The position numbers were made by a program, and so were the translations under genes. A DNA stretch of 64,000 nt from a virus (Duplodnaviria; Caudoviricetes): the IMG/VR virus record IMGVR_UViG_3300027969_000040; one strand, 5' to 3'. Shown piece by piece: positions 1 to 53,952 of this stretch. The notes beneath the pieces were generated by a model, which did not search any database, had not been told where the DNA came from, and saw nothing but the letters and a program-made list of their open reading frames with translations. The number at the start of each line of letters is the position of its first letter. Positions within the stretch are counted from its first letter, which is position 1.

Positions 1-1606
1 ACTTAATTATCTTTTGTTTAATGTTTGATACGCCTTCCGCCACACCTTGCTGCGGTCCTGCTTTTTTGTCAGCGGCCGCAGACGTCATTGGCTCATCTGT
101 ATTACCGTTTTTATTCAAATCTAAAAAGTCTGGCTTAGCCTTTTTGCTTACAACTTTTAGTTCATTTAATTGTGCCATTAGTCTGCGTTCGATTTCGGCT
201 AATTTTTGTTGTTCTGCTAGGTTTCCAATTGCAACTGGTGCACCAACTGTTTGACTATGTTTTTTTCTATGCATATCGTTACCCGAATTGAATTGCACTT
301 CTGCACTTTGTGTAATTGGATATGGTTCGTTAGCATATTCGTCTAGTTCAATATCAACAACTTCTGGTTCCATTTCATGACTAGCACCACCATCAAGTAA
401 GCCAGAAAGTTTTAATATTTGAGCTAGTTCTTCTGCTGCTTGCCCTTGTGCAGATACAGTCAGCGACTTACTTCCGGTTTTGGTATCCATTGAACTGTTA
501 ATGTTCATACCAGTTTCTTCTGGCTGAGCCATCATTGCTTGGTCGTAGCATTCTTCTAGATTTTTGCTTTCGTTGGCGGCATGATGACGTTTCCATGCAG
601 TAGAATACAATGTCTTTAATCCTTTTTCTTCGCCATATTGTTTAATAAAGCGTTCCTTATTTGCTTTAACCCAGCCCTCTTGTCCTGGCGCTGTTACTTC
701 ATCAACTTGTTCTTCTGCCATTGCTTGATCAAATGATTCATTTAATCCGCGTGGACCAGCTGGGCCTTTGGGCATAGTAACTGGCTTTAGTCCGTTAAAA
801 TTGTTATTACCAATTCCGGCAAGTTTTTGTATCTGTCCTATTTCTCCAGAACGAACTTGATCTAACCCTAATGGGAAGTTACCTCCTCTTGCATTACTCT
901 TTCTCTTAATAGCAGGGATCATTACTGGATTAACAACACTACCACTTTCTTCAACTTCTTCTTCTTTCTCGCCGCCTTCGTTGGTCTTGGGAAAATTTGG
1001 ATTGTCCCATGCCTTCTTTTCTTGTCTATTTTTATACCAATCGGCTGCCTTTGTAATACCTTTACCAATTGTAGCGCCAATTGCTGCTCCACCTGCCGCT
1101 GCAAGAGTGCCCGCCATTGGATGTGATGCTAACTGATTTAGTGTATCAATATCAAATTCATCTAATTCTTTTTTTGCTGGTTCGTTTTGAGGTGCAAAAC
1201 GATTATCTTGATATTTTTTTAAAGCAGCACCTGTATGTATAGCTTCTTCTACATGATCGCCGTGGACTGGGCAATCCGTATCTTCTTTATCATCGGTGCA
1301 AGTACATTCGTCGGCTTCTTCTAATTTAGACTTTTTCTTCTTTTTCTTTTTGCCGTCTTCGTCTTGATCGCTATCATCGTCGGATTTATGTCCATCTTCG
1401 GAATCTTGATTACCATAGCTCGTACCTTTAACTCGGGTAACACCACTGGATTTTTCGTCTTTATCTTTGTAAGAACTACTAAACGGATCGTCGCGCTCTT
1501 CTTTTTTCTTGGCTACTTTATCTGCAATATCGTCGCCTTTGCCCTCACCTACAGCGGATGCCGATTCTATACTATCAATTTTTGCTATCATTTTTGCGAA
1601 ATTCAT
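1..1606 (-). CDS. Acidic, low-complexity internal head / prohead-core-like protein; partial, runs off the left edge (at least 535 codons)
   Basis: Absent from the ORF track because no stop lies in the window. I translated it by hand from ATG at 1606 (MNFAKMIAKIDSIE...), open to position 2. It is very E/D/K-rich, has many x-x-E sites (LEE, LDE, VEE, LNE, VDE), and carries the motifs WVKANKERFIKQYG and KPDFLDLNKNGNTDEPM. An AAGGA Shine-Dalgarno overlaps the end of the upstream gene. Confidence 0.7.
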   Translation of the reverse strand, partial: MNFAKMIAKIDSIESASAVGEGKGDDIADKVAKKKEERDDPFSSSYKDKDEKSSGVTRVKGTSYGNQDSEDGHKSDDDSDQDEDGKKKKKKKSKLEEADECTCTDDKEDTDCPVHGDHVEEAIHTGAALKKYQDNRFAPQNEPAKKELDEFDIDTLNQLASHPMAGTLAAAGGAAIGATIGKGITKAADWYKNRQEKKAWDNPNFPKTNEGGEKEEEVEESGSVVNPVMIPAIKRKSNARGGNFPLGLDQVRSGEIGQIQKLAGIGNNNFNGLKPVTMPKGPAGPRGLNESFDQAMAEEQVDEVTAPGQEGWVKANKERFIKQYGEEKGLKTLYSTAWKRHHAANESKNLEECYDQAMMAQPEETGMNINSSMDTKTGSKSLTVSAQGQAAEELAQILKLSGLLDGGASHEMEPEVVDIELDEYANEPYPITQSAEVQFNSGNDMHRKKHSQTVGAPVAIGNLAEQQKLAEIERRLMAQLNELKVVSKKAKPDFLDLNKNGNTDEPMTSAAADKKAGPQQGVAEGVSNIKQKIIK

Positions 1607-8900: not shown

Positions 8901-9338
8901 TTCCCAAATACCAAAGTTACTAGTAGAAGTGTCTAACCAAACTGTGCCGTCTGCACTTTCGCCCTGCGGACGAATCGAAGTTCCTACTAAAGCGTTAAGG
9001 TCAATATCGGCACGCATTGCCCAGACACGGTTTCCCAAGCCCATAGCACTGTATGCTGCCATAACTCCATATTCATTTAACTCATGTCCGTGTAACGCAG
9101 TATCCGCGGTGCTTCTGCGGAAAATAGGATATCCAAATGTATTCGCTAATTCGCGTTGACTGCTAATACCGTATAATTTTCCTGCATTACTTTTTAAAGT
9201 TCCTGGTGCAATTTTGCCGCTGAGTGTTTTATTTTCAGCTGTAGCAAAAACTACAAAAGGTATTGTGCCTACTCCGGTGGGTAGGTATGCGCTCTCGTCA
9301 ATAATCGAGATTTCTAAGCCTGGTGATACTAATGCCAT
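5931..9338 (-). CDS. gp18: Contractile tail sheath protein, enlarged (1135 aa)
   Basis: N-terminal LVSPG.EISIIDES; C-terminal WFAPAGTRRG, NPI, RVNVARL, FLFEPND, YLVVCDTSNNT.DRI.RNELYVD.AI.P.K..EFIYIP; all are sheath-family signatures. Confidence 0.95.
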   Translation of the reverse strand: MALVSPGLEISIIDESAYLPTGVGTIPFVVFATAENKTLSGKIAPGTLKSNAGKLYGISSQRELANTFGYPIFRRSTADTALHGHELNEYGVMAAYSAMGLGNRVWAMRADIDLNALVGTSIRPQGESADGTVWLDTSTSNFGIWEYIADNDTFEAKTPILITSSTQTVSASIVPKSSIGTIGSYAVDVFSNNNYIFYKAADNTWKQVGSSAWADTVPVVTSTTSTVDIPKGSRVKINFDGNGDEIIFSAHITTMSDLRDFINSEVLTWSGNTSITASLVSGRLALYARVGTTAASTSNDGNSVGVITIDDSTIANVNSTQLVVGVRYKILTPGAQDWTVCGAADSAATTEFVATNVGTDTGAIAQPLVLNNLSSIGIDSYTYGRATVEYATFAQVPEWTVFDPIARPSKSVWIKTSQQGNGANFTIKKYSSASESWKSVIAPLQPSAYSVLATLDRIGGGVNIAAGTFFVKTDSQNNGLGSYTIYTLSKKGATKVTGSTIPGALAFTSGHTFDMIVSVTGSETPSTYSCTLPGASPSDFVASILAAGNDDVSATVEANGAISITHRAGGIISLVNTTGGGNPISTAGFTTSTEGVVSNIVSSTINLTNWRPAVYTFSSTEPSTAPANGTYWYYDDATAVDIMICGSDGWKGYQNVVRDGRGYDLTATDPNGVIVTPSKPTSQSNNAGLAPGDLWLDTGDLENYPKLNRYNGSTWVAIDKTDHTSSNGIIFGDARWDDAGTADTVTGTLPTTKSLLTSNYTDLDAPDYRLYPRGTLLFNTRRGGYIVKKFVQDYFNTNSFNVTEGDLPDVTSTWVSQISLNEDGSPMMGHKAQRSVVVAALKAAVDGSNDLREEAYGYNLLTCPGYPELIVNLVSLNNDRANTGFVIGDTPMTLAANLNDITKYDAAQTTADPYLGVYYPSALSTDLSGNEIAVPASHMMLRTFLHSDNLSYQWFAPAGTRRGLVDNVTAIGYLDATSGLFIRAGISTQLRDTLYEKRLNPITQLQGAGIVAYGQKTRAPSVGGGGSAMDRVNVARLVNYLRTVLRGVANSFLFEPNDKIVRDQVKQLVESVLNDLIGKRGLYDYLVVCDTSNNTADRIARNELYVDVAIEPMKDVEFIYIPIRLKNPGSISGLK

Positions 9339-30300: not shown

Positions 30301-31794
30301 TATAGTTAAATCTCCAGTACCAAACGAAAGCGCAGTTTGTGCCGAAAATGTAAGAGTTTGGCTAGTACCATTAAAAAACAAACTACCCAAGGCATAACTA
30401 GTTAAATTACTTCCACCACTGCCGCCACCAAACCCACCTTGATTTCCGGCTGCACCTCCGGTTCCGTAACCGCCCCACGTACTACTGGGTTGCAATCCGG
30501 CGCCGCCAGCACCACTAACCACGCTAGGGCTGTATCCGCCGCCGCCGCCGCTGCCGCCAGGCTGGCCAGAATCTCCGGTTAATGCACTGCCGCCTGCGCC
30601 GCCGCCAATGGCAACTACACCATTGTCACCAAATACTGATGTGCCAATTGCACTGGTGTTGCCACCATTGCTGCCCAAGCTGCCGCCCGACCCAATGGTG
30701 ACTAAACTGTTTCCACTAGTGGACGATGTTATCCCAATTGATCCCAACACCACACCACCACCACCTCCTGTGCCCGGACTGACTGCAGATACTGAGCCAT
30801 CTGCGCCTGCGCCACCACCGCCGGCTACTAATAGATAGTACAAATAAGATTCAGCAGCGAATGTCAATGTATAAAATTTATCAATACTACTGCCACTAGT
30901 TGATGTTGCATTAATTGTAATAAGGTAACCATCAGACAGGGAAGGACTTACTTGTTGGGTATAAGACAATACACCAGTGGATGAATTTATTACTAAACCG
31001 GTTGGACCATTAGCGACACTGTAAGTTATAGTACCACCATTGGAGTCTTGTGCAGTAAACGTATCAATTGAAGAATACGTGCTATTAATAATACTACCGG
31101 TGGTACCGCCGGTTAACCAATTCATATTGCCGCCGCCGGTTCCTCCAGCTGCATATATTGCAGGTGCAGTTGCTGCTGCATCAATGAAATACGTTGCGTC
31201 TCCGTTATCACCGGCACTGGTTCCCGGACCGCCACGCCCGCCCACAACAATGGTATAACTGGTACCAGGCGTCACTGCATAAGCATTATAGTAATCAATT
31301 AAGCCTCCAGCGCCGCCAGTGCCGCCGGCAGCTTTTTGTTGGCCGCCCCCACCACCACCCACACCTACCATACTTATACTGGTTACACCCTCAGGGCAAG
31401 TCCAAGTATAAGTGCCGGGGGTGGTATAAGTTACTGTTGCATATGCACTAACGTTTGAAACTATGTTACCATATGTGTAATTTAATCCCCCACCAAGTAC
31501 TGATGTAGTACTAGTAACTGCAAAACTGTTTGCGTTGGCAGTTATGCTAGTGACATCATCATCTATAATGTAAATTGACTGACCAATATTAGCACCAGCA
31601 TACCCAATTGTGGTTATAACATTCGCCAATACCGGAGTTGTAGATATTGATCTTATGTTGCTTTGGGTGAATACGCTAGTTTCACTGAGATTGAGCCCCA
31701 CTGTGGTCTTGACCAATGAGGAATCACTTTGTACAACAGTTATCGTCGTGAGACGATTGACAACTAGATCAAGATTGGATAGTATAGCAGACAC
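27379..31794 (-). CDS. Glycine-rich fibre/accessory protein with three LamG domains and a short Ig-like segment
   Basis: Three GY.TN.RIV.GTAVY motifs; three Gly-rich domains; AQDSNGGTITYS...GLVINSSTGVLS looks like an Ig/cadherin-like segment. Confidence 0.8.
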   Translation of the reverse strand: MSAILSNLDLVVNRLTTITVVQSDSSLVKTTVGLNLSETSVFTQSNIRSISTTPVLANVITTIGYAGANIGQSIYIIDDDVTSITANANSFAVTSTTSVLGGGLNYTYGNIVSNVSAYATVTYTTPGTYTWTCPEGVTSISMVGVGGGGGGQQKAAGGTGGAGGLIDYYNAYAVTPGTSYTIVVGGRGGPGTSAGDNGDATYFIDAAATAPAIYAAGGTGGGNMNWLTGGTTGSIINSTYSSIDTFTAQDSNGGTITYSVANGPTGLVINSSTGVLSYTQQVSPSLSDGYLITINATSTSGSSIDKFYTLTFAAESYLYYLLVAGGGGAGADGSVSAVSPGTGGGGGVVLGSIGITSSTSGNSLVTIGSGGSLGSNGGNTSAIGTSVFGDNGVVAIGGGAGGSALTGDSGQPGGSGGGGGYSPSVVSGAGGAGLQPSSTWGGYGTGGAAGNQGGFGGGSGGSNLTSYALGSLFFNGTSQTLTFSAQTALSFGTGDLTIEMWVYPTSFAPDGIYAGLIDARSGSGNTSWNVGLFVSAGNMYAYMQIIGATGNPSGATIIPLNAWTHIAWTRQSSTFKIFVNGVIDYNASETRAIDAGGTSQTIGRHNEAGRYYRGYLTNIRIVKGTAVYTSAFSPTVPLSNITNTSLLLLVNSDANKITDSSASPVTLTNVGSVTYSSSVVPSASNTAGTTASGSLVFNGSSYVSYPTNAAWAFGGGNFTVECWFYQTAYPGTNQGGSLVYLWHSGPGRSFAMYASYNGVGGIGASWNTSGGMSGGPATSLNTWYHAAFVRNGASFYLYLNGAQVATTAAVTLVTSSDPLFIGANNDASNPTWFFRGYITNVRIVKGTAVYTSSFAPTVPLALVSGTSLLLTVANNTNRAVDSSSNNFTPTISGATFSSTVVPSTGASATAAGGSFYFNGTNATLTSPGNAAFNLTADFTLEAWVYKQVASSVCFMSCQAGPSPGRGWMMFINTNNTLQMDWSIAGNGNIKSGGTFTSAGTITLNQWCHIALVRSGSTYTFYINGSPAGSGAMSGAVRLAGSFGIGYTPNETTAGVAWYQGYMTNIRIVNGTAVYKSTFTPILLSAVTNTSLLLLVNSSGSYLTDSSVNNLTVTSVNVSYNGTVVPTVASSSGPIAVNILGNVIARYSDGGYAANSSVNYGGGGGRVGYGVAGNAGVAYFWYAGLQRSTGGDLVQSVSYSGTNYWLHKFTSTSYINMLPPATSITINYMIVGGGGGGGSPADNSAGGGGAGGLVTGTFIVLANLNTFVTVQVGTGGAPNVNGTNSSVTCTLSSFNRIALGGGAGGGSSSIYGSNGSPGGSGGGGGGSNGSGSPTGASATQPGSTSGGYGYSGGNGSYTIGAGGGGGAGGPGGNAIAGGAAGAAGLGLLVTTPSATYTKTYAVGGSSGGGGGTATANTGNGGNGLGTGGSGVAIFWWPDIYPAPSSITGSYTTVTENGYKIYVCTAGSISMTF

Positions 31795-41073: not shown

Positions 41074-44000
41074 TTAAGAAACCATCTTGCTTGGTGGAGT
41101 GAATGCACCGGTGTATCTGGCCACGCTCTTGGTTACACGTAAATCATCAATGTAACCGTTGAAATAGTTGGATATTGTTGCACCGCCGCTGTAGCCGGCT
41201 CCGATATTCACTATGCTTGCACTTATATATGCGGTAGTATCAGCCCATGGGGTTCCAGCTACTACACCATTTATATACAAAGTAGTGGTATTAACATAAC
41301 GAACTAGAGCAATATGATACCATGTATTAATAGCAATTGCGCTGGCTGCGCTGGTAATCCTGTCTGCTGTGCTGACATAATATCTAACAGTTCCATCACT
41401 GCTTAAATAGATAAGATGATACGCCCCGTTAGTTGATGCCGGTCTGGTGTCAAATAACTGTGCAGAAGTACCCGGTAGTGCTGCGGCACGCATCCAAAAT
41501 TCGATAGTAAAATCGGATACAGCACCAAAGTTAAACTTGACATCCGAGTAGGGTACTGTTAGGTAGTTACTAGATCCGTTAAAATAAACAGATCCTGTGC
41601 CATACCGGTAAACTGAGTTGACTACTTGTGCTGCGCCTGCTACACTTCTGATCGCGCTCCTCGACGAGGGATCGTTAATAGCAGAAGTTACAGTATTGCC
41701 AATTAATAATGCAGTATTTGCAACCGTAGTCGGAGGGGCCGCAGGTGGTGTAAATGCACTGGTGTACAGTGCAGTACCGTTGACTAATCGAATACCGCCT
41801 ATATAGCCATTGAAAAATAGTGTATTGCTACCAGTTTGACGACCAATACTGCCGCCTGTGGTGGTACCCGCAACACCAAAACTGTCAGCTATTGTACCTT
41901 GGGCATAGACTGCTCCGTTAACATATATAGTTATTTGGTTTGTGCCGGTCCCGGTACGAACTACAGCCACATGATAAAATTGATTTGGTAATAGTGCAAC
42001 AGTTCCGGTTACATATACTGTGGTACTAACACCGGTAGCATAACCAAATTGTAAAAGTCCAGTTGCACTAAATCCCAGCTGCCATTGCCCAGTTTGGAAT
42101 GCTGCTGCAATACCAATAAAGTTGTCAATTAATTTAGGCTGTGCAGTTAGTAGACCAAAAGAATAAAACCAACATTCTAATGTAAAATTGCTTATGCCCA
42201 ATACCAACGAGCTAGCCGGTAAATTTAAATAATCTGCGGTACCATTTAGTACCACAGTTCCGCCGTATGCAGAATTTGACCAGCTGCCAGCTGGTGGATA
42301 TGGTGAAAAGTTTTCAACAGTGGGTGTACCTGCCCTGGTTAATGTTCTAGCATAAACTGATCGATCCACTGCATAGCTATCTTTTAAAGTTAATAAACTA
42401 GTACCAGCTGCAAACGGACTTGCCGTCGACACTGTAGCCAAATTATTGACCATTGCATATGCATTAACACTAGAATCTACAACAGTAGCATTACCAGCAG
42501 CGAGCAAATTGGTAATACCAGTACCAAACGGATTAACAAGTGCCGTGGTAGTTGGTGGCCCTACATTGGTTAAAGTAAATGCATAAGGTCCAGAATCAGT
42601 GAGAGTGCTAGATCTTGCTGCAAGTAAATTAGTATAACCAAAAGGAACAGATGATCCGCCACTGTTAAAAGCAGGATTGCCAGTGGCAGTTATTGAAATG
42701 GCATTGGTACTATTATCAATTGCAGTAGCTGATTGTGCAGTTAAAAATATAGTATTAGCGATAGCAGTTAATGATGTTGTTGGCGGTAGGAAATTAACTG
42801 TAGTATATAGTGCAACACCACTTAGAATTCTAAGATTACTTATGTAGCCGATAAACGGAAACGGATTAGAATCTGCGTATCTACTACCCAATCGAACAGT
42901 GTCGGACAAATTAGAAAATGTAGAAGTCATTGAGCTGATAAACGTACCATTGACAAAAGCAAATAATCTATTAGATTGCATGGTTAATACAACATGTGTC
43001 CAAGTACTAGTCGGTAATGTCCACGAAATAAAATTTACACCTGCGCTATTTGCATTAGCAATACCGGCACCGTTACGTGCAAGTATAAATCCTGATGTTG
43101 TTTGAGTTGTACTAGTTACAATACCTGCTAGACTATCAGCTGCAGGGTCAACCCATACCCAACACTCTACTGTAAAGTCGCCGGTGCCTATAACAAAACT
43201 ATTACTAGTAGCAGTCAAGTAACTGCTACCATTGAAATATACGCTATAAGGAACAACGGGTTGTGTTATTGTTGTTAGTCCTACAGTAGGAACAGTAAAA
43301 GCAATAGATTGATATATTGCTGCACCTTTTGTTATTCGAAGATTTGTCAAATAACCTGCCCAAGACGATACAGTTGTTGCGCTCCATGAGCCAATTGCCG
43401 TCAATCCAGCTGAATAGTTGTCAAGATTGGCAGCACTTGCCATTGCTTGGCCATTGATATATATTGTTATTATTCCACTAGCTCTTACCGCAGCTACATG
43501 TGCCCATGTATTAATTGTTATAGTATTAGTAGGAGTAGTAATTAATAATATATTATTAACCGAGTAAAATACAACTGCGCCAGTTGCATTGTTAACACCA
43601 ATCCGATATGTACCTGCACCCGACCCAGTTCCAACAAAATAAGTTGGCCCAGTGGTTGTTGTATAATAGATCCATGCTTCAATGGTGAAATCCCCGGTAC
43701 CCATTTGTAATGCTACATTGTCTGGTACTGTTGAATATGCTGGTAAAGAATTAAGTGCTGGCGCTATGTCGGCAGATACAACAAGGTTGGTATTAGTCAC
43801 AGTTAGACTATAGCCCCCGGTATCGGTGATATATCCTGCTGTACCGTTTAATAGCAATGACGTATAACTCAAATTTGGTATTGCCGCAGAAGGATTGCCA
43901 TTCTGATTAGCAATTTGTGTACTAGTCAATTGGCCTGTGGAAACAACAAAATTGCTGGTATATACAGCTAGACCTTTAACAATACGGAAATTAGAAATAT

Positions 44001-47000
44001 AACCTGCAAAGGGAAGAAGATTGCCGTCGGAATTAGCACCAATCGTTAATAAATTATTACCAGTATTACTCATAACGGCAGCCAGAGATACAGGAGTTTG
44101 TGATACCCCATTTACATATGCAGTTATTGTATTTCCGTTACGCACTAATGCAAAATGATACCAAGTAGATATCACAAAGGTGCCAATTATGGTTTGTGCT
44201 GCCGCTGCGCCGGATCCACCGTTGCCCAAGGTCCATGTTCCAGTTCCGGCATTGATATTAAAAATATATGAAGGATTCACGGTGCCAGTTGCGCCACCTT
44301 TTCCAAATATTACACGATTAGATGCAACACTGGTAAGATAAAACCAAGTCTCTATGGTCCAATTTAGAGCACCGGTTGCTAAATCTAAAGCATCGCCTGT
44401 AGTTCCTGTAATAGATATATACTGGGTTGTACCATTGAAACTTAAACTACTTGCTAGCAGTGCAAAATTAGTACTATAATTAGTTGTAACATTGGAAATT
44501 GCTGTAGTTGATGGAGTAAAGTTTGCTGTGTACAGGGCTTGTCCATTTGTTACACGTAGGTTAGAAATATGTCCAGTGAATTTGCCACCTGTGCCTGACC
44601 ACCCACCAATGACTGTAGTATTAGCTGTGGTTCCCCATGTTCCAGTCTGGGCAATAGTACCAACATTATTTCCTGCCAGGTATACTGTTACCGTATTTGA
44701 TCGATTTACAAAAGCTATGTGTGTCCAAGTATTTAAACTTGGTGTTGTTGCTGTTACTGTTTGATAGCTAAGGCCATTTCTTGCTGCTACAATATATCCA
44801 GCATTAGTAATACCCCAAGTTTGATAACTAGTAACTCCCACATTACCACTAATAATATTAACTGAGGTAGCGTATGTAATACCAGTTGCAACAGCGGTCA
44901 TGTAGATCCATGCTTCGACTGTGTAGTCACTAGTTAATGTTGTTACTACTGCCAATGGCGCTGCCAAATAAGAAGTAGTACCATTGAATAATACACTGTA
45001 TGTGCCGGTGCCTGCCACAGTGGTTAGTGGCGCAATTGGTTGTACTGTAGACTGGACACCTTTATCAATTTGTAAATTAGATATGTATCCCGAAAAATAT
45101 GCAGTACCAGCCGGATTTCTACCAATATTTAATGTGTTAGTCGGCGCCGCAGTATTGTACACAAACGATGGTAAGCTACTTGAGCCAGCTGCTAGACCGT
45201 TAATATAAAAACCAACTGTTTTTGTATTAGCTGTAAAAGTAACCGCTATGTAGTTCCACTGGTTTAATACTACTACCGGATTTGAATTAAATGCCGGGTT
45301 GGTAACGGCGCTACCAGTGGCATTAAAGAACACCACGGACATGCTGCCAGTTACACCACCATAGGTGGTATTGTTAAGTTCAATACTGATCCCAGTTTGA
45401 CCGGCCACATTGGTTGTGGCTAGCGGAACCATTAGTGATGAGCTTCTTGGATATATCCAAAATCTCACAGTCCAATCTTCAATACCATTGTGTAAGAATG
45501 CCCACTCGATGGCAGTGCTCGCTGTGTAGTAGTCAGTGGATCCGTTGAATTGATAACTCCAACCAGTTACAAACGGATTCACTGCGCCTTGTGTAGCAGT
45601 ACCTGCTCTAACAATTAAATAGTTATTAAAGCTGTTGTCCGAGAAGAAATTGTTATTATTTGATACGTTGTACTGACTGGTCAATACACTGGTACCGGCA
45701 TAGGCAGTAAATGGATTGTTCACGCTAACGCCGGTTACACCTTGGTTGGTAATAGCAATAGCGCCGCCGCTGGTGTCAACAATAGTTCTAGACTGAGCTA
45801 TTAGCAAGCTGGTGGTACTGGTGAATGGATTAACTGCAATACTGGTTACTGTACCGGTATTGGTGATGGACACTGGCAGTGTACTATTGTCTACAATGGT
45901 TGCCGCTTGCGCAGTTAATACTATTACATAAGCTGGAATTTGTGTGGAGTCGGTAGCAATTGAAATGCCACCAACATTAGTTATTGCTGCTGAATTTGCA
46001 CTATTATCTATAATAGTATTATTTTGCAAAGTTAACAAGCTGGCCTGTGTTCCAGTCACGGCAGCAATATTACTGCTGGCATTTTGTATAGTAGATAATT
46101 GAATGGTAGGTGGTGTAAAGTTGCCAGTGTAGACTGCGACATCTTTTACAATTCTGAAATTACTAATATAGCCATTCCAGAATTGGTCGCCCGATGCACC
46201 ATCTGATTTACCGATATACCCTGGAGCAGTAGTATGTGAAATAGTTCCAGCATAGGTATAGACTGTACCGCCCACACCATTTTGATATATCCTAAATGAA
46301 CTGCCACTTCTAACCAATGCTACATGGTACCAAGTGTTTGTTGTTAGTGCTGGTAAACCAAAATCAAGATTAGAATCAATTGCCCATGATGTACCAGATG
46401 AACTAGCAATTTGCATGACTAATTTATTTGTGGTATTAAGTACACGAAATATTACACCAATGTATTGTAGTAATTCTCTCTTACCAAATATACCGTTTTG
46501 ACCGTTTAATACAGTAGTATATACCCATGCTTCAATAGTAAAATCACCAGTACTAAGATTAATTGCAGTTGAATGTGGTACAGTCAAATACTGTGTACTA
46601 CCATTAAAACTTGCATAGTAATATTTTGGTGGTAAGGTTGGTGTTAGTAAAGATGCTGTTGTGCCGCCAACGTTGGTGATTGTGTTTACATATGCACTTG
46701 CATCTGTTATAGCTGCGCCTTGTAATGTTAACATGCTGGTTTGCAATCCGGTGATAGCTGCTATGTTACTACTAGAACTTTGTGTAGTTGCCAGTGGCAA
46801 GGTTGGTACTGTAAAGTTGCCAGTGTATACTGCTACTCCTTTAACTACACGTAAATTAGTAATATAACCATTAAAAATGTAGCCAGGTGATAATGGAACA
46901 TTACCATCTGTACCAATTATTGGTCTATTAGTGCCGTTTAACCAATTTGTAGTACTGGTGCCGCTAGAGGATTGTACACCATTGATATATGTAGTCTGAG

Positions 47001-50000
47001 TTGTACCACTCCTACAAATCGCAATGTGATACCAAGTGTTAAGAGAAATTGTACCGTTAAAAATTTCACCAGCAGGACCTACACCAAAACATACATGACT
47101 AGCACCGCTACCGGTTCCAGCCGGTCGAGAATCATATAACCATCCATTAGTTGCAGAACGAGCATTTTGATATATCCACATTTCAATTGTGAAATCACCA
47201 GTGCCAAAAGCAAATTGCGAATTGGTTCCTGGTACATATAGATATTGTGTCAAACCATTGAACACTCCACTGTACGCGGCGGCATAGTTGATAGCAGCAG
47301 ATGGTAATCCATTTTGATTGGCTGTTTGTACGTTAGTCAACGAGGCTGTAGCTGGCGTAAACGTAGTAGTGTAAACTGCTATGCTTTTAACAAGCCTGAA
47401 ATTGCTTATATAGCCAGTGAATGGTTGTGTACCTGCGCTGGATGCTCCAATGGATATGGTATTTGTTGCAGCATAAAGACTGGGTGTACCACTTGAATAT
47501 GTCACAACCGAAGTACCATTTAGGTATAGGGTAAATATATCGCCATTTCTGACAAACGCCAGGTGATTCCATTGATTTAACGCTATAACCGAGCTTGATA
47601 CACTATCTGTTAGTACTGTCGACCCGTCAACGGATAACAAAAATCTAGCAAACCCACTGACATTATTACTGGTCATGACAACCCAAGACAGAGTTGTACC
47701 GCCAGTAGATCCAGACCATTGTCCAAAAAATATATTTTGTGCTGTCCAAGCTATAGATCTATAAACCCAAGCTTCGGCAGTAAAATTATCTGTACCAAAT
47801 TGGAATGTTGTACTAGTAGGAATTGTCAAATAGTTACTACCACTAAACGAATAGCTGTAGGATGCTGAGCCGGCACCAACAATGGCCCGTGATGGTACAC
47901 CATTTTGATTAGCTGTCTGTGATGATGTCAATGCTGTAGTAGCGGGCGTAAAGTTGGCTGTGTAAATGGCCACACCTTTTACCAATCTCATGTTGCTAAT
48001 ATAGCCAGGGAAATAGTAAGTAGTACCTTGGCCATCAAGTCCAAAGCCCACCGACAATAGCGCAGTGGACGCTGTGATACTAGCCGGGGCTGCAACCGAA
48101 CTAACCAACGACCCATTGAGATAAACATTAGAGTTTGCAGTTGATTTGACCCATGCTACATGGTACCAGGTATTGGCTGCAATTACACTAGACGGCGATG
48201 ATTGAAATAGTGTAGTGTTATAATCTACACGTATGTTGCCACTCATTGTACGCATCTGGAATGCTTTACCACCGGCAGTGGTCCACAAACTCACAATGCT
48301 TGCATTGGCTCTAGTTATATCTGTAACATATATCCAAGTTTCAACTGTAAACTCAGCTGCGCCAAATACATACCCGGTATTATTTGGCGCAGTCAAATAT
48401 TGGTTAACACCATTCAAATACACACTGTAATTTTTTACCACTGGCTGATCAATTGCAGTAATATTAGTTCCAGATGCTTGTGTTGATGTCAGTGATGACG
48501 TAGACGGCGTAAAATTACCAGTATAGACCGCAATGCCTAATACTTTACGGAAGTTGCTAATATAGCCGGTCCAATATAAACCCGGTGTGGTTCCTGCACC
48601 ACTACCAATTGACAATGGTGCCACATTAGTATGTACATTTCCTGCAACTGTTGCAGTACCGCTTATATTACCATTGACCCATACCGACCACGTATTACTG
48701 GATTTAGTAACTGCTACGTGATTCCATAGTCCGGCCTTAATAGACGCATTTGATGTAATCGCCACCGTCCAAGTTGCACCATCTGTACTGGCATTGAATA
48801 CTGGTGCCAGTGTACTTGCAAATGCCAATTGGTAACCAGAAAATAATGCTGTTGTGCCACGCTTGGCAAATACAGCTCCAGTAGGAGTAGTCAGCGTAGT
48901 CCATATCCAAGCTTCTAGTGTAGTATTCAATACTCCAATATTAAACTCAGGTGCATCTGCAATGGTAAAGTAATCTGTAGTACCGTTAAAATAAGTTGAA
49001 CCCAGTGTAGCATTATCGCCAGACAATGTTAACGCACTAGCAAACGGCGCACGAGCTTGAGTGGGTCTGATGGCAGCATTGGTATTTGTTAAAGTTAAAT
49101 TATTTCCAGAATTGTCAACAAACGTGCTATTCTGCAATGCTAATAATTTAGTTTGACCGGCTGTGATTGCAGCTGACGGAAATCCGTTTACGTTTAAATC
49201 TTGTACGGCTGTCAACGGCACAGTTGATGGTGTAAAGTTGCCAGTGACAATTACCAGCGTGCCTTTAACTACACGAATGTTGGTAATGTATCCAACGAAT
49301 GGTCTGCTGGGTCCATTTATCCAAGCACCTATATAGGTTTGGAAGCTGGCAGACCAGTTGACTGATACAGTTGACACTGCTACCGAACCGCTGAGTCCGG
49401 CGGTCCTATACAACGACAATGTGGTACCTGTGCGTATTAATCGATAATAGTACCAAATATTTGGTGATAGTACACCTGCAGATTCTGTGATAGTATAAGC
49501 AGTAACTCCTGAATATATGGTTGCAGTCATTGCAGCATTATTCATTTCAAGTACGATGCCTTCGTCTGCATTGCTAGCGATTGTGCTATTTGAAATGGAG
49601 AATACTCGCTGTAGTCCAACTACGGTAGTTGGATATATCCAAAGATCTACTGCAAAGTCGCCAGCACCGACTTGGAAGGCAGCGTTATTTGCCACCTGTA
49701 GATACTGTATGTTTAGACTTTGATCTGTGGTCAGCGTATTAGGAAAACTTCTGCCTGGTCCCCATATTATACGTACTGCGCCTTGGCCTCCATAACCACC
49801 TATAGGTGCTTGGCCGCTGTTATCACTGCCACCACCACCGCCACCACCAAAATCGCCGCCAGGATTATATCCCAGTGTAGTTATGCCGCCGGGTGCTCCT
49901 ACTGCCCAACCACGGGCGCCGCCACCATTGCCAGTACCGAATGGTGTTGTTAATCTATAGATAACTCCGGTATTGGTTATGGTGTTAGGTGTTGTGCTCA

Positions 50001-52272
50001 AATCAGTTATGTATGCCGCACTGTTTGCAGACAACAATAATAGCGATGTTGCACTGGCACTGGCAATTGCTTGAATGTTAAGTATTGGGTTACCAGTCTG
50101 GGTAGCAGTCAGTGGCGCAGTGGGTGGTGTGAAGTTGCCTGTATAGACTGCAACACCTTTGACTATACGTGCATTAGTTATGTATCCAGAAAAGACGTTA
50201 CTAGAATCATTTGTTTGTCTACCAATTGATATTCCACCAGTGGTACCAAAGGCTTGGGTCAATGCTCCTGGGCTGGTTGCTGCAAGCACGCCGTTTACAT
50301 AAATTTTTAAGTTTCCAACGGCAGAGCCCGAACGAACCACAGCAATATGATACCAAGAGTTTATAGTCACTGCCGATGCTGCTGTGCCAAAAAAGGTAGC
50401 AGCGGAGGCGGCAGTGGCATAACCAAGAGCAACTGCTCCAGTAGTTAACAATTGAAGTTGGCATTGGCCAACGATGTATGATCCGGATGCATTGCTAAAT
50501 AGATCAATAGTTTGTTGAGTAGCAGCCAAACTTCTTGTATATATCCAACATTCTATGGTGAAATCACCAGTTCCAAAACTAAATGCTGCATTGGCAGGCA
50601 CAGTCAAATAACTACTAGAACCATTGAAAAATAGGGCGCCACCAGGTGCATAGTCGGCCGATCCACCAAAAGTTTCTTGGTTTAGCCCAGGTGCTGCATT
50701 ACCACTGGTTCCTTGCCCAAGTACGCCAACACCGCCGCCACCGGTGCCGATGGGGTAAGGTGCATTGCCAGCATAATACCCCAAGCCGCCGCCAGCGCCT
50801 CCGCCTGTACCTGCTGTAGTAACGTTACCAGTTGGCCCAAACATGCCGTTACCGCCTGCACCAGTGTATCCACCACCTCCGCCCCCGCCGGCAGTAGCGA
50901 ATGTGGCTCCAGTGGCTGTTGTTCCGCCAGTACCACCGAGGCCGCCGCCATCACCGAGAAATGATCCGCCAGCGCCGCCGGTGTTATTAATGGCGCCGCT
51001 GCCGCCAACACCTAAAACAGTTGTTCTATTAATGAAGTAACTGTCGCCGCCGGCACCACCTATGCTCACACCACCGCTGCCTAATGAACTTGGGCCACCA
51101 ATCCCTCTTGAACCAACAACAACAGTATAACTGGTTCCTGGTGTTACTGAGATGTTATTTCGCCATCCCAGGCCACCCCCGCCACCGCCCTCGCCACCAG
51201 AGTAGCCATTGTGTCCACTCCAGCCTGAGTTGCCACCGCCACCTGCACCAACGGCTACCGCCGACACACTGGTAACACCCGCAGGGCATACCCAAGTTGC
51301 ATTGCTGGTAAACAATTGTTGATAAACCAAATTGGCAGTTACTAGACTACCACCAGCGTCCACAGGTGTTAGTGTGCTGTAGGTGATTGGATACGTTGCT
51401 GGGTTGAGCACTGTAAATGCATTGGCACTGGAATCTGTGATATAGGTTGGCGCAGAAGTTACATTTAGTAATAGCGATGTTCCTGTTACATTGGCAGCCA
51501 GGGTAGTTGGCACTGATGCTCCATATAGTGCAACACCGTTGACAAATCTAAAGTTATTAATGTATCCATTAAAGAATTGACCAGTGTTGCTATTTCCAAT
51601 CATTAGCACGTTGTCTGTCCAGCTGACTGTTTGAGTTGCACTATTTGTTAATGTGCCATTCATCCAACAGGCATGTACATTTGCACGTCTGGTATAAGCG
51701 ACATGCATCCAACTGTTAGTTGGTATGCTTCCAGCCGACCCCGGAAGTCCAGCACTTGGTGGTACTACCCAATTACTACTGTTACTACGTATACCCATGC
51801 CATTAGCGTTACTGATAAACCAGTGCCACCCAGCATTACTACCACCTGCGGTTGTGCTGGCAATTGCTTCAGTTGCCGTACCGGGTGTGCTAATATATAT
51901 CCAGCATTCTGCTGTAAAATCTCCCACTCCGGTGGCAAAAGCAGCAGAGTTTGCGGCTGTTGTTAATTGAGCAGCACCACCAAAATAGACTGGATAGTTA
52001 AGACCAGTAGTTGGCAAGAATGGATTGTTTAAATCTGGGCGAGCAGAGCCAGCTGGGACAACGGTTAGTGCGTTTGAACTAGCATCGGTATTGTATACTG
52101 GTGCTGTGGTATCAGCTTGTATTTCTAAAATAACACTTTTTCTATAGGGATCATTTGTGGTCCAAGTATCTGCACCTGTATATTTGGCAGTGTCGGCCGT
52201 GGACCAAACTCCACCATCTGCTGGATATATTGTAGTTGAAGTTATTAGTCCACCTGGGAATTTTTTTGCCAT
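41074..52272 (-). CDS. Giant 3732-aa fibre/accessory protein with 15 LamG/ConA-like domains (nested) and one Gly-rich domain
   Basis: Fifteen copies of the core-ending G.I.N/D.R...G/S.A.Y motif counted by eye, and fifteen LL...D.S..TN.G segments. Confidence 0.85.
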   Translation of the reverse strand: MAKKFPGGLITSTTIYPADGGVWSTADTAKYTGADTWTTNDPYRKSVILEIQADTTAPVYNTDASSNALTVVPAGSARPDLNNPFLPTTGLNYPVYFGGAAQLTTAANSAAFATGVGDFTAECWIYISTPGTATEAIASTTAGGSNAGWHWFISNANGMGIRSNSSNWVVPPSAGLPGSAGSIPTNSWMHVAYTRRANVHACWMNGTLTNSATQTVSWTDNVLMIGNSNTGQFFNGYINNFRFVNGVALYGASVPTTLAANVTGTSLLLNVTSAPTYITDSSANAFTVLNPATYPITYSTLTPVDAGGSLVTANLVYQQLFTSNATWVCPAGVTSVSAVAVGAGGGGNSGWSGHNGYSGGEGGGGGGLGWRNNISVTPGTSYTVVVGSRGIGGPSSLGSGGVSIGGAGGDSYFINRTTVLGVGGSGAINNTGGAGGSFLGDGGGLGGTGGTTATGATFATAGGGGGGGYTGAGGNGMFGPTGNVTTAGTGGGAGGGLGYYAGNAPYPIGTGGGGVGVLGQGTSGNAAPGLNQETFGGSADYAPGGALFFNGSSSYLTVPANAAFSFGTGDFTIECWIYTRSLAATQQTIDLFSNASGSYIVGQCQLQLLTTGAVALGYATAASAATFFGTAASAVTINSWYHIAVVRSGSAVGNLKIYVNGVLAATSPGALTQAFGTTGGISIGRQTNDSSNVFSGYITNARIVKGVAVYTGNFTPPTAPLTATQTGNPILNIQAIASASATSLLLLSANSAAYITDLSTTPNTITNTGVIYRLTTPFGTGNGGGARGWAVGAPGGITTLGYNPGGDFGGGGGGGSDNSGQAPIGGYGGQGAVRIIWGPGRSFPNTLTTDQSLNIQYLQVANNAAFQVGAGDFAVDLWIYPTTVVGLQRVFSISNSTIASNADEGIVLEMNNAAMTATIYSGVTAYTITESAGVLSPNIWYYYRLIRTGTTLSLYRTAGLSGSVAVSTVSVNWSASFQTYIGAWINGPSRPFVGYITNIRVVKGTLVIVTGNFTPSTVPLTAVQDLNVNGFPSAAITAGQTKLLALQNSTFVDNSGNNLTLTNTNAAIRPTQARAPFASALTLSGDNATLGSTYFNGTTDYFTIADAPEFNIGVLNTTLEAWIWTTLTTPTGAVFAKRGTTALFSGYQLAFASTLAPVFNASTDGATWTVAITSNASIKAGLWNHVAVTKSSNTWSVWVNGNISGTATVAGNVHTNVAPLSIGSGAGTTPGLYWTGYISNFRKVLGIAVYTGNFTPSTSSLTSTQASGTNITAIDQPVVKNYSVYLNGVNQYLTAPNNTGYVFGAAEFTVETWIYVTDITRANASIVSLWTTAGGKAFQMRTMSGNIRVDYNTTLFQSSPSSVIAANTWYHVAWVKSTANSNVYLNGSLVSSVAAPASITASTALLSVGFGLDGQGTTYYFPGYISNMRLVKGVAIYTANFTPATTALTSSQTANQNGVPSRAIVGAGSASYSYSFSGSNYLTIPTSTTFQFGTDNFTAEAWVYRSIAWTAQNIFFGQWSGSTGGTTLSWVVMTSNNVSGFARFLLSVDGSTVLTDSVSSSVIALNQWNHLAFVRNGDIFTLYLNGTSVVTYSSGTPSLYAATNTISIGASSAGTQPFTGYISNFRLVKSIAVYTTTFTPATASLTNVQTANQNGLPSAAINYAAAYSGVFNGLTQYLYVPGTNSQFAFGTGDFTIEMWIYQNARSATNGWLYDSRPAGTGSGASHVCFGVGPAGEIFNGTISLNTWYHIAICRSGTTQTTYINGVQSSSGTSTTNWLNGTNRPIIGTDGNVPLSPGYIFNGYITNLRVVKGVAVYTGNFTVPTLPLATTQSSSSNIAAITGLQTSMLTLQGAAITDASAYVNTITNVGGTTASLLTPTLPPKYYYASFNGSTQYLTVPHSTAINLSTGDFTIEAWVYTTVLNGQNGIFGKRELLQYIGVIFRVLNTTNKLVMQIASSSGTSWAIDSNLDFGLPALTTNTWYHVALVRSGSSFRIYQNGVGGTVYTYAGTISHTTAPGYIGKSDGASGDQFWNGYISNFRIVKDVAVYTGNFTPPTIQLSTIQNASSNIAAVTGTQASLLTLQNNTIIDNSANSAAITNVGGISIATDSTQIPAYVIVLTAQAATIVDNSTLPVSITNTGTVTSIAVNPFTSTTSLLIAQSRTIVDTSGGAIAITNQGVTGVSVNNPFTAYAGTSVLTSQYNVSNNNNFFSDNSFNNYLIVRAGTATQGAVNPFVTGWSYQFNGSTDYYTASTAIEWAFLHNGIEDWTVRFWIYPRSSSLMVPLATTNVAGQTGISIELNNTTYGGVTGSMSVVFFNATGSAVTNPAFNSNPVVVLNQWNYIAVTFTANTKTVGFYINGLAAGSSSLPSFVYNTAAPTNTLNIGRNPAGTAYFSGYISNLQIDKGVQSTVQPIAPLTTVAGTGTYSVLFNGTTSYLAAPLAVVTTLTSDYTVEAWIYMTAVATGITYATSVNIISGNVGVTSYQTWGITNAGYIVAARNGLSYQTVTATTPSLNTWTHIAFVNRSNTVTVYLAGNNVGTIAQTGTWGTTANTTVIGGWSGTGGKFTGHISNLRVTNGQALYTANFTPSTTAISNVTTNYSTNFALLASSLSFNGTTQYISITGTTGDALDLATGALNWTIETWFYLTSVASNRVIFGKGGATGTVNPSYIFNINAGTGTWTLGNGGSGAAAAQTIIGTFVISTWYHFALVRNGNTITAYVNGVSQTPVSLAAVMSNTGNNLLTIGANSDGNLLPFAGYISNFRIVKGLAVYTSNFVVSTGQLTSTQIANQNGNPSAAIPNLSYTSLLLNGTAGYITDTGGYSLTVTNTNLVVSADIAPALNSLPAYSTVPDNVALQMGTGDFTIEAWIYYTTTTGPTYFVGTGSGAGTYRIGVNNATGAVVFYSVNNILLITTPTNTITINTWAHVAAVRASGIITIYINGQAMASAANLDNYSAGLTAIGSWSATTVSSWAGYLTNLRITKGAAIYQSIAFTVPTVGLTTITQPVVPYSVYFNGSSYLTATSNSFVIGTGDFTVECWVWVDPAADSLAGIVTSTTQTTSGFILARNGAGIANANSAGVNFISWTLPTSTWTHVVLTMQSNRLFAFVNGTFISSMTSTFSNLSDTVRLGSRYADSNPFPFIGYISNLRILSGVALYTTVNFLPPTTSLTAIANTIFLTAQSATAIDNSTNAISITATGNPAFNSGGSSVPFGYTNLLAARSSTLTDSGPYAFTLTNVGPPTTTALVNPFGTGITNLLAAGNATVVDSSVNAYAMVNNLATVSTASPFAAGTSLLTLKDSYAVDRSVYARTLTRAGTPTVENFSPYPPAGSWSNSAYGGTVVLNGTADYLNLPASSLVLGISNFTLECWFYSFGLLTAQPKLIDNFIGIAAAFQTGQWQLGFSATGLLQFGYATGVSTTVYVTGTVALLPNQFYHVAVVRTGTGTNQITIYVNGAVYAQGTIADSFGVAGTTTGGSIGRQTGSNTLFFNGYIGGIRLVNGTALYTSAFTPPAAPPTTVANTALLIGNTVTSAINDPSSRSAIRSVAGAAQVVNSVYRYGTGSVYFNGSSNYLTVPYSDVKFNFGAVSDFTIEFWMRAAALPGTSAQLFDTRPASTNGAYHLIYLSSDGTVRYYVSTADRITSAASAIAINTWYHIALVRYVNTTTLYINGVVAGTPWADTTAYISASIVNIGAGYSGGATISNYFNGYIDDLRVTKSVARYTGAFTPPSKMVS

Positions 52273-52284
52273 TATTGATCCATT

Positions 52285-53952
52285 TTACACAACAAACGCC
52301 GCGCTGGTAGTAAATGCATGATAAACATAACCGCCACTAATACTTATATTTCCTCCAGTGGCCGCGGCCGCAGAACCAGGATATCTGACAACAACTAGTC
52401 CACTACCGCCTGCACCTGGAACATTATCATAGTAGCTACCGCCACCGCCCCCTCCCGAATTTGCAATACCATTTGTTGCTGCCACAGCATTGAGAACACT
52501 ACCACCGCGGCCGCCGCCGCCAAGACCAGCGGCTGTAATTGGGGATAATGTAGAGTATGTGACAGAACCAACGTTGGTTATAGTATATCCAAAGGCACCA
52601 GTATCAGTAAATGCAGCAGCCGATGATGAGGCTGTTAATAATACAGAAGTAGTGCCACTTGTAACTGCGGCAACATTACTGCCACCAAAAGGATTAGCAG
52701 CTTGCACCGCAGTCAATGGGCCCGCCGGCGGGGTAAAATCGCCAGTGTATACTGCTATACCATTTACCATTCTAAAATTGGTAATGTAACCATAGAACGG
52801 ATATGTGTAACTTGATGTAGCACCACGTCCAATCTGTAATATAGTCCGAGATGTCCAAGCCGGTACTGTTCCAGTGGCAATCTGTACACCATTAACAAAT
52901 AATCGAGCAGTAGTACCCGATCTTGAAAATGCCACGTGATACCAAGTCAATGTTGAGAAAGTGTATCCAGCAGAGACAAAATATAGTGTATTGTTAACTG
53001 CTTTATAAACAACAGTTAACCCACCGGGTTGAAAGTAAAATTGCCACGTGGCACTACTAGCACCATCGCCTTCGGCTGCAATTGCAGATGCCCGGATGTA
53101 CTGATTTGCGTTTGCTGGGTCTGGCATTGTAGTTATATACATCCAAGCTTCAACTGTATGGTCACTGCTGACCCAGCCTCCTGCATTGGTTGCACTTAGA
53201 TAGTTGCTGCCATTGAATAATAGTGCTCCAGACTGGCCCCCACCTAATCCATTAGTAACTGTGGCTCCAGCAGCACCACCACCGCCACCACTGGCATATG
53301 TATTTCCATCAAACCAAGTATATCCAACTCCGCCCTGACCTGATGCAGTTGTAATTCCAAGCCCGCCAACTCCGCCGGCGCCGCCGCCGCCACTGGAATA
53401 TGTAGCTGCACCACCGGCGCCGCCTGCAAAGCCTAGTCCGCCGCTGGCAGATGATGGTTGATTAGCGGCACCTGCGCCAATGCCCGACATGCCTCCACCA
53501 GACCCTCCAGCCAGTAATGCTTGCGGAACTCCAGTGCCCGTGGTGTAACTGCCGCCGCCTTGTCCTCCACCTAATGCAGTAAATCCATTAAATGTTGAAC
53601 TTAATCCAGTGGATAGCGCAGCAGTACTATTACCACTGTTTAAAACAATTGCCGGCCCGCCTGCACCTATAGTAACTGTATATGATCCGGTTGATGTAAT
53701 GAATCCAGTTTTGACCACAACACCGCCGGCACCGCCACCACCGCCTTGCCAAGCTAGAGCAGCATCACCTGTACCCCCTCCGCCACCGCCACCAACTATA
53801 ATATAGTCAATTGACAATTGTCCCGGACCTGGCCAGACACCTGCTTGTTTATTTTGCATCTGCTGCGACAATGTCCAAAATCCGCTACCATTGATATTGG
53901 TAGGATTATAATTCGATCCTGAAATTATTCCGCCAGGATATCTCTTGCTCAT
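52285..53952 (-). CDS. Gly-rich accessory protein with one inserted LamG domain
   Basis: MSKRYPGG N-terminus; IDYIIVGGGGGGG ... GGSGLVVVRYPG...ATGG...YVYHAFT; LamG domain in the middle. Confidence 0.78.
   Translation of the reverse strand: MSKRYPGGIISGSNYNPTNINGSGFWTLSQQMQNKQAGVWPGPGQLSIDYIIVGGGGGGGTGDAALAWQGGGGGAGGVVVKTGFITSTGSYTVTIGAGGPAIVLNSGNSTAALSTGLSSTFNGFTALGGGQGGGSYTTGTGVPQALLAGGSGGGMSGIGAGAANQPSSASGGLGFAGGAGGAATYSSGGGGAGGVGGLGITTASGQGGVGYTWFDGNTYASGGGGGAAGATVTNGLGGGQSGALLFNGSNYLSATNAGGWVSSDHTVEAWMYITTMPDPANANQYIRASAIAAEGDGASSATWQFYFQPGGLTVVYKAVNNTLYFVSAGYTFSTLTWYHVAFSRSGTTARLFVNGVQIATGTVPAWTSRTILQIGRGATSSYTYPFYGYITNFRMVNGIAVYTGDFTPPAGPLTAVQAANPFGGSNVAAVTSGTTSVLLTASSSAAAFTDTGAFGYTITNVGSVTYSTLSPITAAGLGGGGRGGSVLNAVAATNGIANSGGGGGGSYYDNVPGAGGSGLVVVRYPGSAAAATGGNISISGGYVYHAFTTSAAFVV

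Follow-up and report, generated by a model that had tools for sequence, protein, structure and literature searches.

Likely recursive insertion of LamG domains in a giant protein of a phage tail module

How can an array of laminin G-like (LamG) domains contain several domain cores in a row with nothing to close them and, further on, a stack of closing pieces with no cores between them? The question is raised by the gene of a 3732-amino-acid (aa) protein, here called P0001, which lies at 41074..52272 on the minus strand of a 64,000-nucleotide stretch of virus DNA (IMG/VR record IMGVR_UViG_3300027969_000040; "the window" denotes this whole stretch) and was identified from the open reading frame list and its translation. 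The Pfam family Laminin_G_3 (PF13385) matches P0001 in 15 stretches (E value of 3.9e-234; 767.6 bits against a gathering score of 27.6). From structure predictions and sequence statistics, we consider it likely that P0001 is a tree of LamG (concanavalin A-like) beta-sandwich domains built by recursive domain insertion.

Cores were first marked by the motifs FTxExW and GYIxNxR, with each junction inspected. Two hidden Markov models (HMMs) were then built from P0001's own cores (~175 aa) and segments (~39 aa) and mapped along the protein. With C for a core and s for a segment, the order is s C s [Gly-rich] C s C s C C C C s C s s s s C C C s C C s s s s C s C. An iterated segment HMM lost the two weakest segments (s1 and s14), and the relaxed union of both HMMs again gave 15 of each element. 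Cores 4, 5, 6, 9, 10, and 12 have no segment directly after them; three surplus segments follow core 8 and three follow core 13, making two stacks of four. Stack 1 (s8 plus three extras) lies at aa 2076-2236 (window 45565-46047) and stack 2 (s13 plus three extras) at aa 3172-3327 (window 42292-42759).

The mapping of separate core and segment HMMs, along P0001 as well as its homologues, recovered the bracket pattern that a first-pass annotation of the sequence had described: cores 4, 5, and 6 open, 7 and 8 closed, and three extra segments; then cores 9, 10, and 12 open, 11 and 13 closed, and again three extra segments, with both stacks where it had placed them. Its totals of 15 cores and 15 segments (~38 aa each) also stand. 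Its balance holds with an amendment, as it needs the leading segment before core 1 (s0) and a core 15 that has no segment after it and stops 1-3 residues ahead of the stop codon. The breaks in the first nest come after an AAI/TAI/RAI linker, much as noted earlier for AAI/TAI, and the linkers of the second nest are shorter and lack that motif. The segment follows the core in the single-domain 526-aa and 555-aa proteins of the window, in agreement with the earlier description. From the start of the gene to its end, the features are as follows (window coordinates):

52012..52140, minus strand: s0, leading segment before core 1 (aa 45-87), proposed partner of core 15; segment HMM E value of 3.1e-11, special subtype kept in 47 homologues
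51361..51999, minus strand: C1 and s1, closed unit (aa 92-304); HMM map
49753..51303, minus strand: probable glycine-rich domain, in two parts (aa 324-529; aa 781-840) with C2 and s2 as the apparent guest between them; sub-cutoff Gly_rich_2 match and glycine-rich sequence after s2
49933-50640, minus strand: C2 and s2, apparent guest unit (aa 545-780) within the glycine-rich domain
49039..49740, minus strand: C3 and s3, closed unit (aa 845-1078); HMM map, and C3 with s3 is the best coupling score of its row
47335..49005, minus strand: open cores C4 (48487-49005), C5 (47926-48435), and C6 (47335-47865); HMM map and junction sequences
45934..47280, minus strand: C7 and s7 (46630-47280) and C8 and s8 (45934-46626), closed units in tandem, the proposed guests at the bottom of nest 1; HMM map
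45565..45933, minus strand: stack 1 extras x8a (45820-45933), x8b (45706-45819), and x8c (45565-45699); segment HMM E values of 2.5e-13, 2e-14, and 4.2e-11
44497..45564, minus strand: open cores C9 (45016-45564) and C10 (44497-45003); HMM map
43753..44448, minus strand: C11 and s11, closed unit, probably a guest in core 12; junction comparison with the orthologue P0007
42640..43743, minus strand: C12, open host (43273-43743), with C13 and s13 as the predicted closed guest inside (42640-43251); structure model m1e05d67dff82
42292..42639, minus strand: stack 2 extras x13a (42520-42639), x13b (42409-42519), and x13c (42292-42408); predicted pairing of x13a with C12 and x13b with C10 from superposition ranges of structure models, proposed pairing of x13c with C9 from coupling
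41599..42264, minus strand: C14 and s14, a divergent segment (aa 3337-3558); HMM matches, s14 weak at 1.3e-08
41080..41598, minus strand: C15, trailing core (aa 3559-3731) of the special subtype GYIDDLRVTK..ARYT; junction and subtype analysis

The proposed explanation starts from the single domain. A complete domain would consist of a core of ~170 aa and a two-strand segment of ~38 aa, with the first strand of the segment paired with the last strand of the core (GYISNxRIVKG), the second strand paired with the core's second strand (..YLTVP), and the tail of the segment running back along the core's first strand. Such a tail would leave the two ends of the unit close together, so that a whole unit could be a guest in a loop. 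Guests, or further hosts, would go into the linker between the host core and the host segment; host cores would therefore pile up first and their closing segments afterward, last in, first out. Nest 1 would then read C4[C5[C6[(C7 s7)(C8 s8)]xa]xb]xc and nest 2 C9[C10[C12[(C13 s13)]xa']xb']xc'; the first hairpin of C12 would hold C11 s11 as an additional guest (xa to xc are x8a to x8c of the list, and xa' to xc' are x13a to x13c). The outcome would be a tree of lectin-like domains hanging from a few attachment points.

We modeled slices of the nests with AlphaFold2 (AF2) and read their topology from the first and last aligned residues and the aligned length of VIA-align superpositions on Protein Data Bank (PDB) chains. 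Model 1 (m1e05d67dff82) had P0001:2831-3253 (C12 C13 s13 xa') as the query and an alignment of 33 collinear CCss rows (the query plus 32 other slices). Its predicted local distance difference test (pLDDT) score is 77.4 and its predicted template modeling (pTM) score 0.66, and xa' forms strands at a pLDDT of ~78-80. Single-domain PDB chains superpose on this model over 4..420, with 185-199 residues aligned at 2.7-3.0 Å. The chain 4dqa, for example, aligns over 5..420 of the model (Z of 20.1; 191 residues; root mean square deviation [rmsd] of 2.7); the pentraxins 3flp and 1sac align 185-193 of their ~205 residues over 1..421, and the LamG module of PAPP-A (8d8o) likewise spans the model. The single LG domains 2r16, 1qu0_C, and 3bod were aligned at 175..379, that is, on C13 plus s13. 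Because C12 is only ~170 residues long and 185-199 residues are aligned, xa' appears to belong to the C12 domain. Read from these ranges, model 1 has the form A1-B-A2, the two host pieces making one predicted domain with a complete guest between them.

Model 2 covers three levels. Its query was P0007:2426-3051, the slice of an 85% identical orthologue equivalent to C10 C12 C13 s13 xa' xb' in P0001, and the alignment had 20 CCCsss rows (the query plus 19 slices, six of which were taken from inside deeper nests). P0007 was used as the three-deep query because on P0001, MAFFT put the CCCCssss rows on C10-C13 rather than on C9, C10, C12, and C13. At a pLDDT of 71.8, one superposed range of model 2 is 3..626 (186-206 residues aligned; Z up to 21.1), which corresponds to the first core plus the third segment, and another is 176..584 (179-183 aligned), the second core plus the second segment; together, they describe predicted recursive self-insertion at three levels. 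The ranges that sequential pairing would produce (5..545 and 350..623) were looked for in the model 2 superpositions, and neither was seen. The ranges observed in the two models point to last-in-first-out nesting in both. Against 4dqa, 8d8o, 3flp, 1sac, and 2r16, the models gave Z scores of 16-21 and rmsds of 2.5-3.3 Å over 160-206 residues, a predicted LamG/pentraxin jelly-roll fold.

In P0001, the pairs seen by prediction are C12-xa' and C13-s13; in the 85% orthologue, they are C10-xb' and C12-xa'. For stack 1, we infer the closing order x8a-C6, x8b-C5, and x8c-C4 from the nest 2 models and the coupling total of the favored register (see below), and on coupling scores and grammar, we propose that x13c closes C9. 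In the models, the stack has no separate fold, the open cores are completed by distant stacked segments, and the order is nested rather than sequential. Together with the homologue and coupling statistics that follow, the models on slices of P0001 and P0007 support the recursive insertion and nested pairing order that the first-pass annotation had suggested. A model of the orthologue's third piece in BFVD matches model 1 with a template modeling (TM) score of 0.70, an agreement that is not independent since the method is the same and the sequence nearly so. A search of the AlphaFold DB clusters with the two-deep model gave a best TM score, by query, of 0.40 and no cellular two-domain nest, which is not proof of absence.

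Searching with aa 1085-2240 of P0001 returned 146 proteins, between 2050 and 6500 aa in length and almost all of viral metagenomic origin, and the 120 listed ones were mapped with iterated HMMs. Among these 120 of the 146, runs of n cores followed by n segments occur as 2+2 (29 times), 3+3 (13 times), 4+4 (3 times), and 8+8 (once). The last is in P0021, where eight consecutive LamG cores and then eight consecutive segments take up ~1800 residues (aa 1508-3329); if nested like the modeled cases, this would be a nest of seven or eight levels. Two homologues (P0025 and P0026) have a 7+6 run followed by an unassigned gap of 49 aa. The nest 1 layout of P0001 (aa 1085-2240) is common only to orthologues of at least 85% identity, and the orthologue P0007 differs from P0001 by the loss of one closed unit. 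Over 108 distinct architectures, the length of a core run correlated with that of the next stack at an r of 0.56, whereas 5000 shuffles within proteins averaged 0.30 and reached 0.53 at most. Run and stack were exactly equal in 43 of 85 stacks, for which the shuffles gave a mean of 18 and a maximum of 30. Stand-alone CCss blocks occur amid unrelated sequence in P0110, P0063, and P0020; since they are isolated from other LamG tokens, such blocks balance by themselves.

These data also bear on the idea that the stacks are a beta-repeat in their own right (for example, a spacer or shaft), that the open cores are complete alone, and that the equal counts are a by-product of duplication. It would fit the many homologues that have more cores than detected segments, and the Pfam Laminin_G_3 model, which spans the core only. 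We nevertheless find it scarcely credible, given that run-length equality exceeds every shuffle, that the isolated CCss blocks are balanced alone, and that the distant segment lies inside the superpositions (185-206 residues aligned against cores of 157-170). The stacked segments also fit the cores of their nests better than the segments of simple units do, as described below.

Many of the homologues with a surplus of one core have 46-54 aa left unassigned at one point; this gap would just fit a segment and is probably a divergent one missed by the HMMs. The gap is conserved between the third-last and second-last cores, ahead of a C-terminal core-segment-core ending (P0021 aa 3511-3564; P0051 aa 2388-2434). 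The weak s14 of P0001 occupies the equivalent junction, between its last two cores.

Does sequence covariation tie a stacked segment to a distant core? We scored core-segment pairs by mutual-information log-odds trained on 650 adjacent core-segment units. Held-out true pairs won 75% of comparisons with other segments from their own protein. The most strongly coupled columns link the first strand of the segment with the first and last strands of the core and the second half of the segment with core columns 8-12 and 173. Among 46 pure nests, 36 scored higher with last-in-first-out than with sequential pairing (p of 8e-5), and outer nested pairs won 71% of their comparisons with segments of simple units (p of 1.6e-5). 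For the assignment within P0001, the protein and its four orthologues were left out of the training. The full nested assignment totaled -172, against -288 +/- 33 for random assignments (P = 0.0003), and in the same matrix, C9 scored -11 with xc' and -36 with xc.

The stacked segments might complete the open cores sequentially, or in trans through three-dimensional domain swapping in an oligomeric fiber; the matching counts would then be genuine, and the nesting within a single chain would not. Phage fiber proteins are commonly oligomers, and s0 supplied as a second chain is predicted to dock on C15 (see below), so trans complementation is possible in principle; the coupling score, in addition, does not distinguish between orders of the outer segments. 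Both AF2 monomer models, however, took the nested order though the sequential order was possible in the same construct, and last-in-first-out pairing wins in the 36 nests mentioned above. Stacked segments are 0-5 aa apart (median of 4), and cores are linked by ~8-45 aa. Links this short would suit local nested connections and would hardly span the four to eight domains that a sequential order calls for. Completion in sequence or in trans is thus very unlikely.

The same nesting can be read in another register, in which each tandem segment belongs to the next core (s0-C1, s3-C4, xc-C9, xc'-C14, and s14-C15), the inner pairs of a nest alone join a core with a later segment, the nests are three deep, and no end-to-end pairing is needed. 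Nearly all complete homologues begin with a segment and end with a core, as a plain segment-core tandem would, and both AF2 constructs are identical under either register. Isolated units point mostly the other way, with 85 core-segment units among the homologues versus 14 segment-core units. Insertions of more than 100 aa are about five times commoner at segment-to-core junctions (8.0%) than at core-to-segment junctions (1.7%), which argues against units that begin with their segment. In this register, moreover, s1 would have to reach C3 across the entire glycine-rich domain.

Scoring speaks to the register as well. With a model from isolated units only, the following segment outscored the preceding one in 61% of 392 triples. 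The first core favored the following over the leading segment in 33 of 45 homologues, and the last stacked segment favored the first core of its nest over the next core in 26 of 35 cases (K=60). For the nest's first core, the last stacked and the preceding segments tied (17 of 35), which counts in favor of the other register. In P0001, the assignment by next core totaled -295 (P = 0.57), like random; C15 with s14 is the worst score of its row (-57), and C9 prefers xc' to xc, as given above. We conclude that the register in which a core is followed by its own segment is clearly favored and that the opposite register is unlikely. The nests of P0001 would be three or four deep, depending on the register at the nest edges, where core-to-following-segment pairing is again favored. 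The isolated opposite-order units have their segment directly before the core and unrelated flanks (P0073, P0101, P0109, P0106, and P0119), which suggests that the domain occurs in either circular permutation.

Several points weigh against recursive nesting as the reading of P0001. All structural support is prediction at moderate confidence (pLDDT of 72-77; pTM score of 0.50-0.66), and it comes through aligned ranges, not contacts. The folded constructs cover the inner levels of nest 2, at most three deep, and the three-deep model comes from the orthologue P0007, with slice boundaries chosen on the presumption of nesting. The homologue data points are phylogenetically non-independent. In 47 complete proteins, cores minus detected segments came to 0 in 9, 1 in 18, and 2 or more in 20; with such a surplus in many homologues, some cores may need no segment, or some segments may be too divergent to detect. 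Most of the last-in-first-out excess comes from the innermost pair, whose two members are adjacent. Compared with other segments of their own nest, outer nested pairs did not score significantly higher (54%); set beside the 71% against simple units, this indicates that stacked segments belong with the cores of the nest and that the coupling score cannot put the outer ones in order.

In the core-then-own-segment register, s0 and C15 are left over at the two ends of the protein. In at least 47 non-redundant homologues, the LamG part opens with a special segment subtype (D.YF.Y..LLL ... D.S.NN ... NPY..GYYS), and these same proteins close with a special core subtype (GYI.DLRITKG.ARYT..FTPP) that stops 2-9 residues short of the stop codon. 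We predicted the complex of C15 with s0 as a separate chain. The interface score (ipSAE) was 0.70 (0.65, 0.70, and 0.71 in the runs) against 0.00 for the best of three controls, with a partner pLDDT of 60-65 and at least 75% of contacts common to the runs. Of 80 solved complexes, 58 attained the pass mark (partner pLDDT of at least 59 and at least 75% shared contacts), as did 2 of 110 mismatched pairs. For s0 and C15, own-built alignments were used, and the pass is non-specific, as any segment may dock on any open core in the predictor. The predicted contacts join SVILEI of s0 with YIDDLRVTKSV of C15 and LTVVPA of s0 with ..YLTVP of C15, and the coupling columns single out the same strands.

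The coupling score of C15 with s0 (+14) is the best in its row and in its column. Over 47 homologues, the leading segment ranked at 0.305 for the trailing core (0 being the best; p of 4e-5), and it favored the trailing over the first core in 33 of the 47. A coupling model from the 85 isolated units alone gave no signal for trailing core and leading segment (53%). With that model, a cross-protein matching signal was absent for every pairing, and the s0-C15 signal appears only with the larger training set. We put the pairing of s0 with C15, in the predicted form, at roughly even chances. Within one chain, it may mean that the whole array of ~3470 residues is the payload of a single split LamG domain by the N-terminal anchor. 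It is distinctly unlikely that s0 is instead donated to C15 of the next copy (donor-strand complementation), which would link lectin trees on the virion either head to tail in chains or into closed rings.

Linkers between core and segment are probably not the only place where guests are found. The junction in P0001 reads NYSTNF-[C11 s11]-AYSTVPDN (region 43753-44484; aa 2597-2840), where NYSTNF, at window 44467-44484, is the first strand of core 12. The 85% orthologue P0007 is without exactly C11 s11 and reads FTYIF-SAS-YLISAN there, with an uninterrupted first hairpin. From these junctions, C11 and s11 are probably inserted in the core 12 loop between the first and second strands, a second kind of insertion site, and this unit is probably not a sibling inside the loop of core 10.

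A host of another kind appears to surround core 2. Gly_rich_2 (PF21722) matches P0001 at aa 324-529 only, with 21.7 bits, under the cutoff of 24.3, and glycine-rich sequence resumes past s2. In the neighboring 555-aa protein (window 52285-53952, minus strand), the same family matches with 62.3 bits in two stretches that flank its LamG; the core and segment of this protein look like a guest in a Gly_rich_2 domain, with the same layout around core 2 of P0001. The 555-aa protein and P0001 also have an N-terminal motif in common (MSKRYPGGIISG and MAKKFPGGLITS).

What is such a protein for, and whose is it? P0001 matches virion structural and baseplate wedge families in PHROG, and its gene neighbors include a tail sheath gene and several tail fiber genes (the tail module of a myovirus). 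For the 1135-aa tail sheath (window 5931-9338, minus strand), the best cultured relatives are the jumbo phages Atu_ph07 and Phosso and those of the PA5oct group, with ~44% identity to those sheaths across ~60% of the length. The window is probably part of an uncultured jumbo myovirus. Close relatives of P0001 are on metagenomic contigs only, the longest of which (348 kb) carries an orthologue. Megablast of the P0001 gene against 50,697 phage records gave zero matches, and comparison at the protein level among phage records gave only distant cyanophage and other LamG proteins. With its lectin fold and its place among tail sheath and fiber genes, P0001 is probably a compact, branched, multivalent glycan-binding adhesin.

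Two other proteins of the window contain LamG units. The 1505-aa protein (window 22815-27332, minus strand) has four LamG cores and segments. In two of its cores (aa 331-491 and 789-926), the match to the core HMM does not begin until position 19 or 26, so that their first strands seem to be missing or displaced, and there is a short additional segment-like match at aa 563-577; guests may interrupt the first hairpins in this protein too. The 1471-aa protein (window 27379-31794, minus strand) has a tandem of three plain core-segment units (aa 470-1125). On either side of these units lie matches to PHROG families shared with the glycine-rich part of the 555-aa neighbor (phrog_2295), and the N terminus has a weak match to a tail fiber assembly family.

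If the models are right, an outer domain can complete its fold only once over 1000 additional residues have been synthesized and have folded, and in one homologue, this would go on for about eight levels. The nesting would then be an extreme natural test case for cotranslational folding and for the limits of discontinuous domains. What looks like a beads-on-a-string array would become a compact, branched, multivalent adhesin with branches locked by their hosts, and this form should affect the reach, avidity, and mechanical strength of the phage's receptor-binding organ. There are consequences for annotation as well: domain models of the core only miss the closing strands, and structure databases that slice long proteins break the nests. 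BFVD holds the orthologue as three pieces of ~1237 aa each, and judging from these lengths, one of the cuts is expected within nest 1. Close relatives differ in nest depth, which offers a system for studying how domain insertion arises and stays balanced, and a self-insertable unit with meeting ends is a possible module for the design of branched multivalent binders.

How does P0001 compare with known systems? Ordinary LamG and pentraxin domains (4dqa, 8d8o, 1sac, and the neurexin LNS domain 2r16) have the same predicted fold, and the segment of P0001 corresponds to the C-terminal strands of these chains. The solved domains are continuous, whereas the last two strands in P0001 would lie up to ~1100 residues downstream of their core (C4-xc and C9-xc') and, in the s0-C15 pair, ~3470 residues upstream. 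Chaperone-usher pili use donor-strand complementation, in which an incomplete beta-sandwich is completed by the terminal extension of another subunit. The likeness to P0001 is that C15 is without strands that s0 could supply; the differences are that the fold is LamG and not Ig-like, that two strands rather than one would be supplied, and that the s0-C15 pairing may be within one chain. In A1-B-A2 nesting in general, as in the proposed reading of P0001, an interrupted host still folds; the guests in P0001 would be of the same kind as their hosts, at several levels.

Searches of the literature for nested LamG, LamG insertion in tail fibers, and laminin G with a donor strand found no description. 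The claim of the first-pass annotation that the architecture is undescribed therefore stands for LamG in the literature searched, and not for recursive self-insertion itself, which is known from SI3 of RNA polymerase (PMC13114784). The extreme case in a 2026 survey of domain insertions is SI3 of cyanobacterial RNA polymerase, in which hybrid-motif domains are nested six levels deep (PMC13114784); for this, the survey cites Shen et al. 2023 and Alvarez-Carreno et al. 2024. As in the proposed reading of P0001, homologous domains lie one inside another (A1-B1-C-B2-A2), some hosts have more than one guest, and host halves are piled up to either side of the innermost domain (PMC13114784). Unlike P0001, SI3 has the sandwich-barrel hybrid motif (SBHM) fold and sits in the trigger loop of the RNA polymerase beta' subunit, not in a phage tail module; the second piece of a host in P0001 would be a two-strand segment only, and this too differs from SI3. 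SI3 is one conserved, lineage-specific insert, whereas in the P0001 family, the depth would range freely from 2 to 8, with many nests per chain. P0001 thus resembles SI3 in its proposed topology only and is not a member of that group: its fold and setting are different, and its nesting appears to be both variable and deeper.

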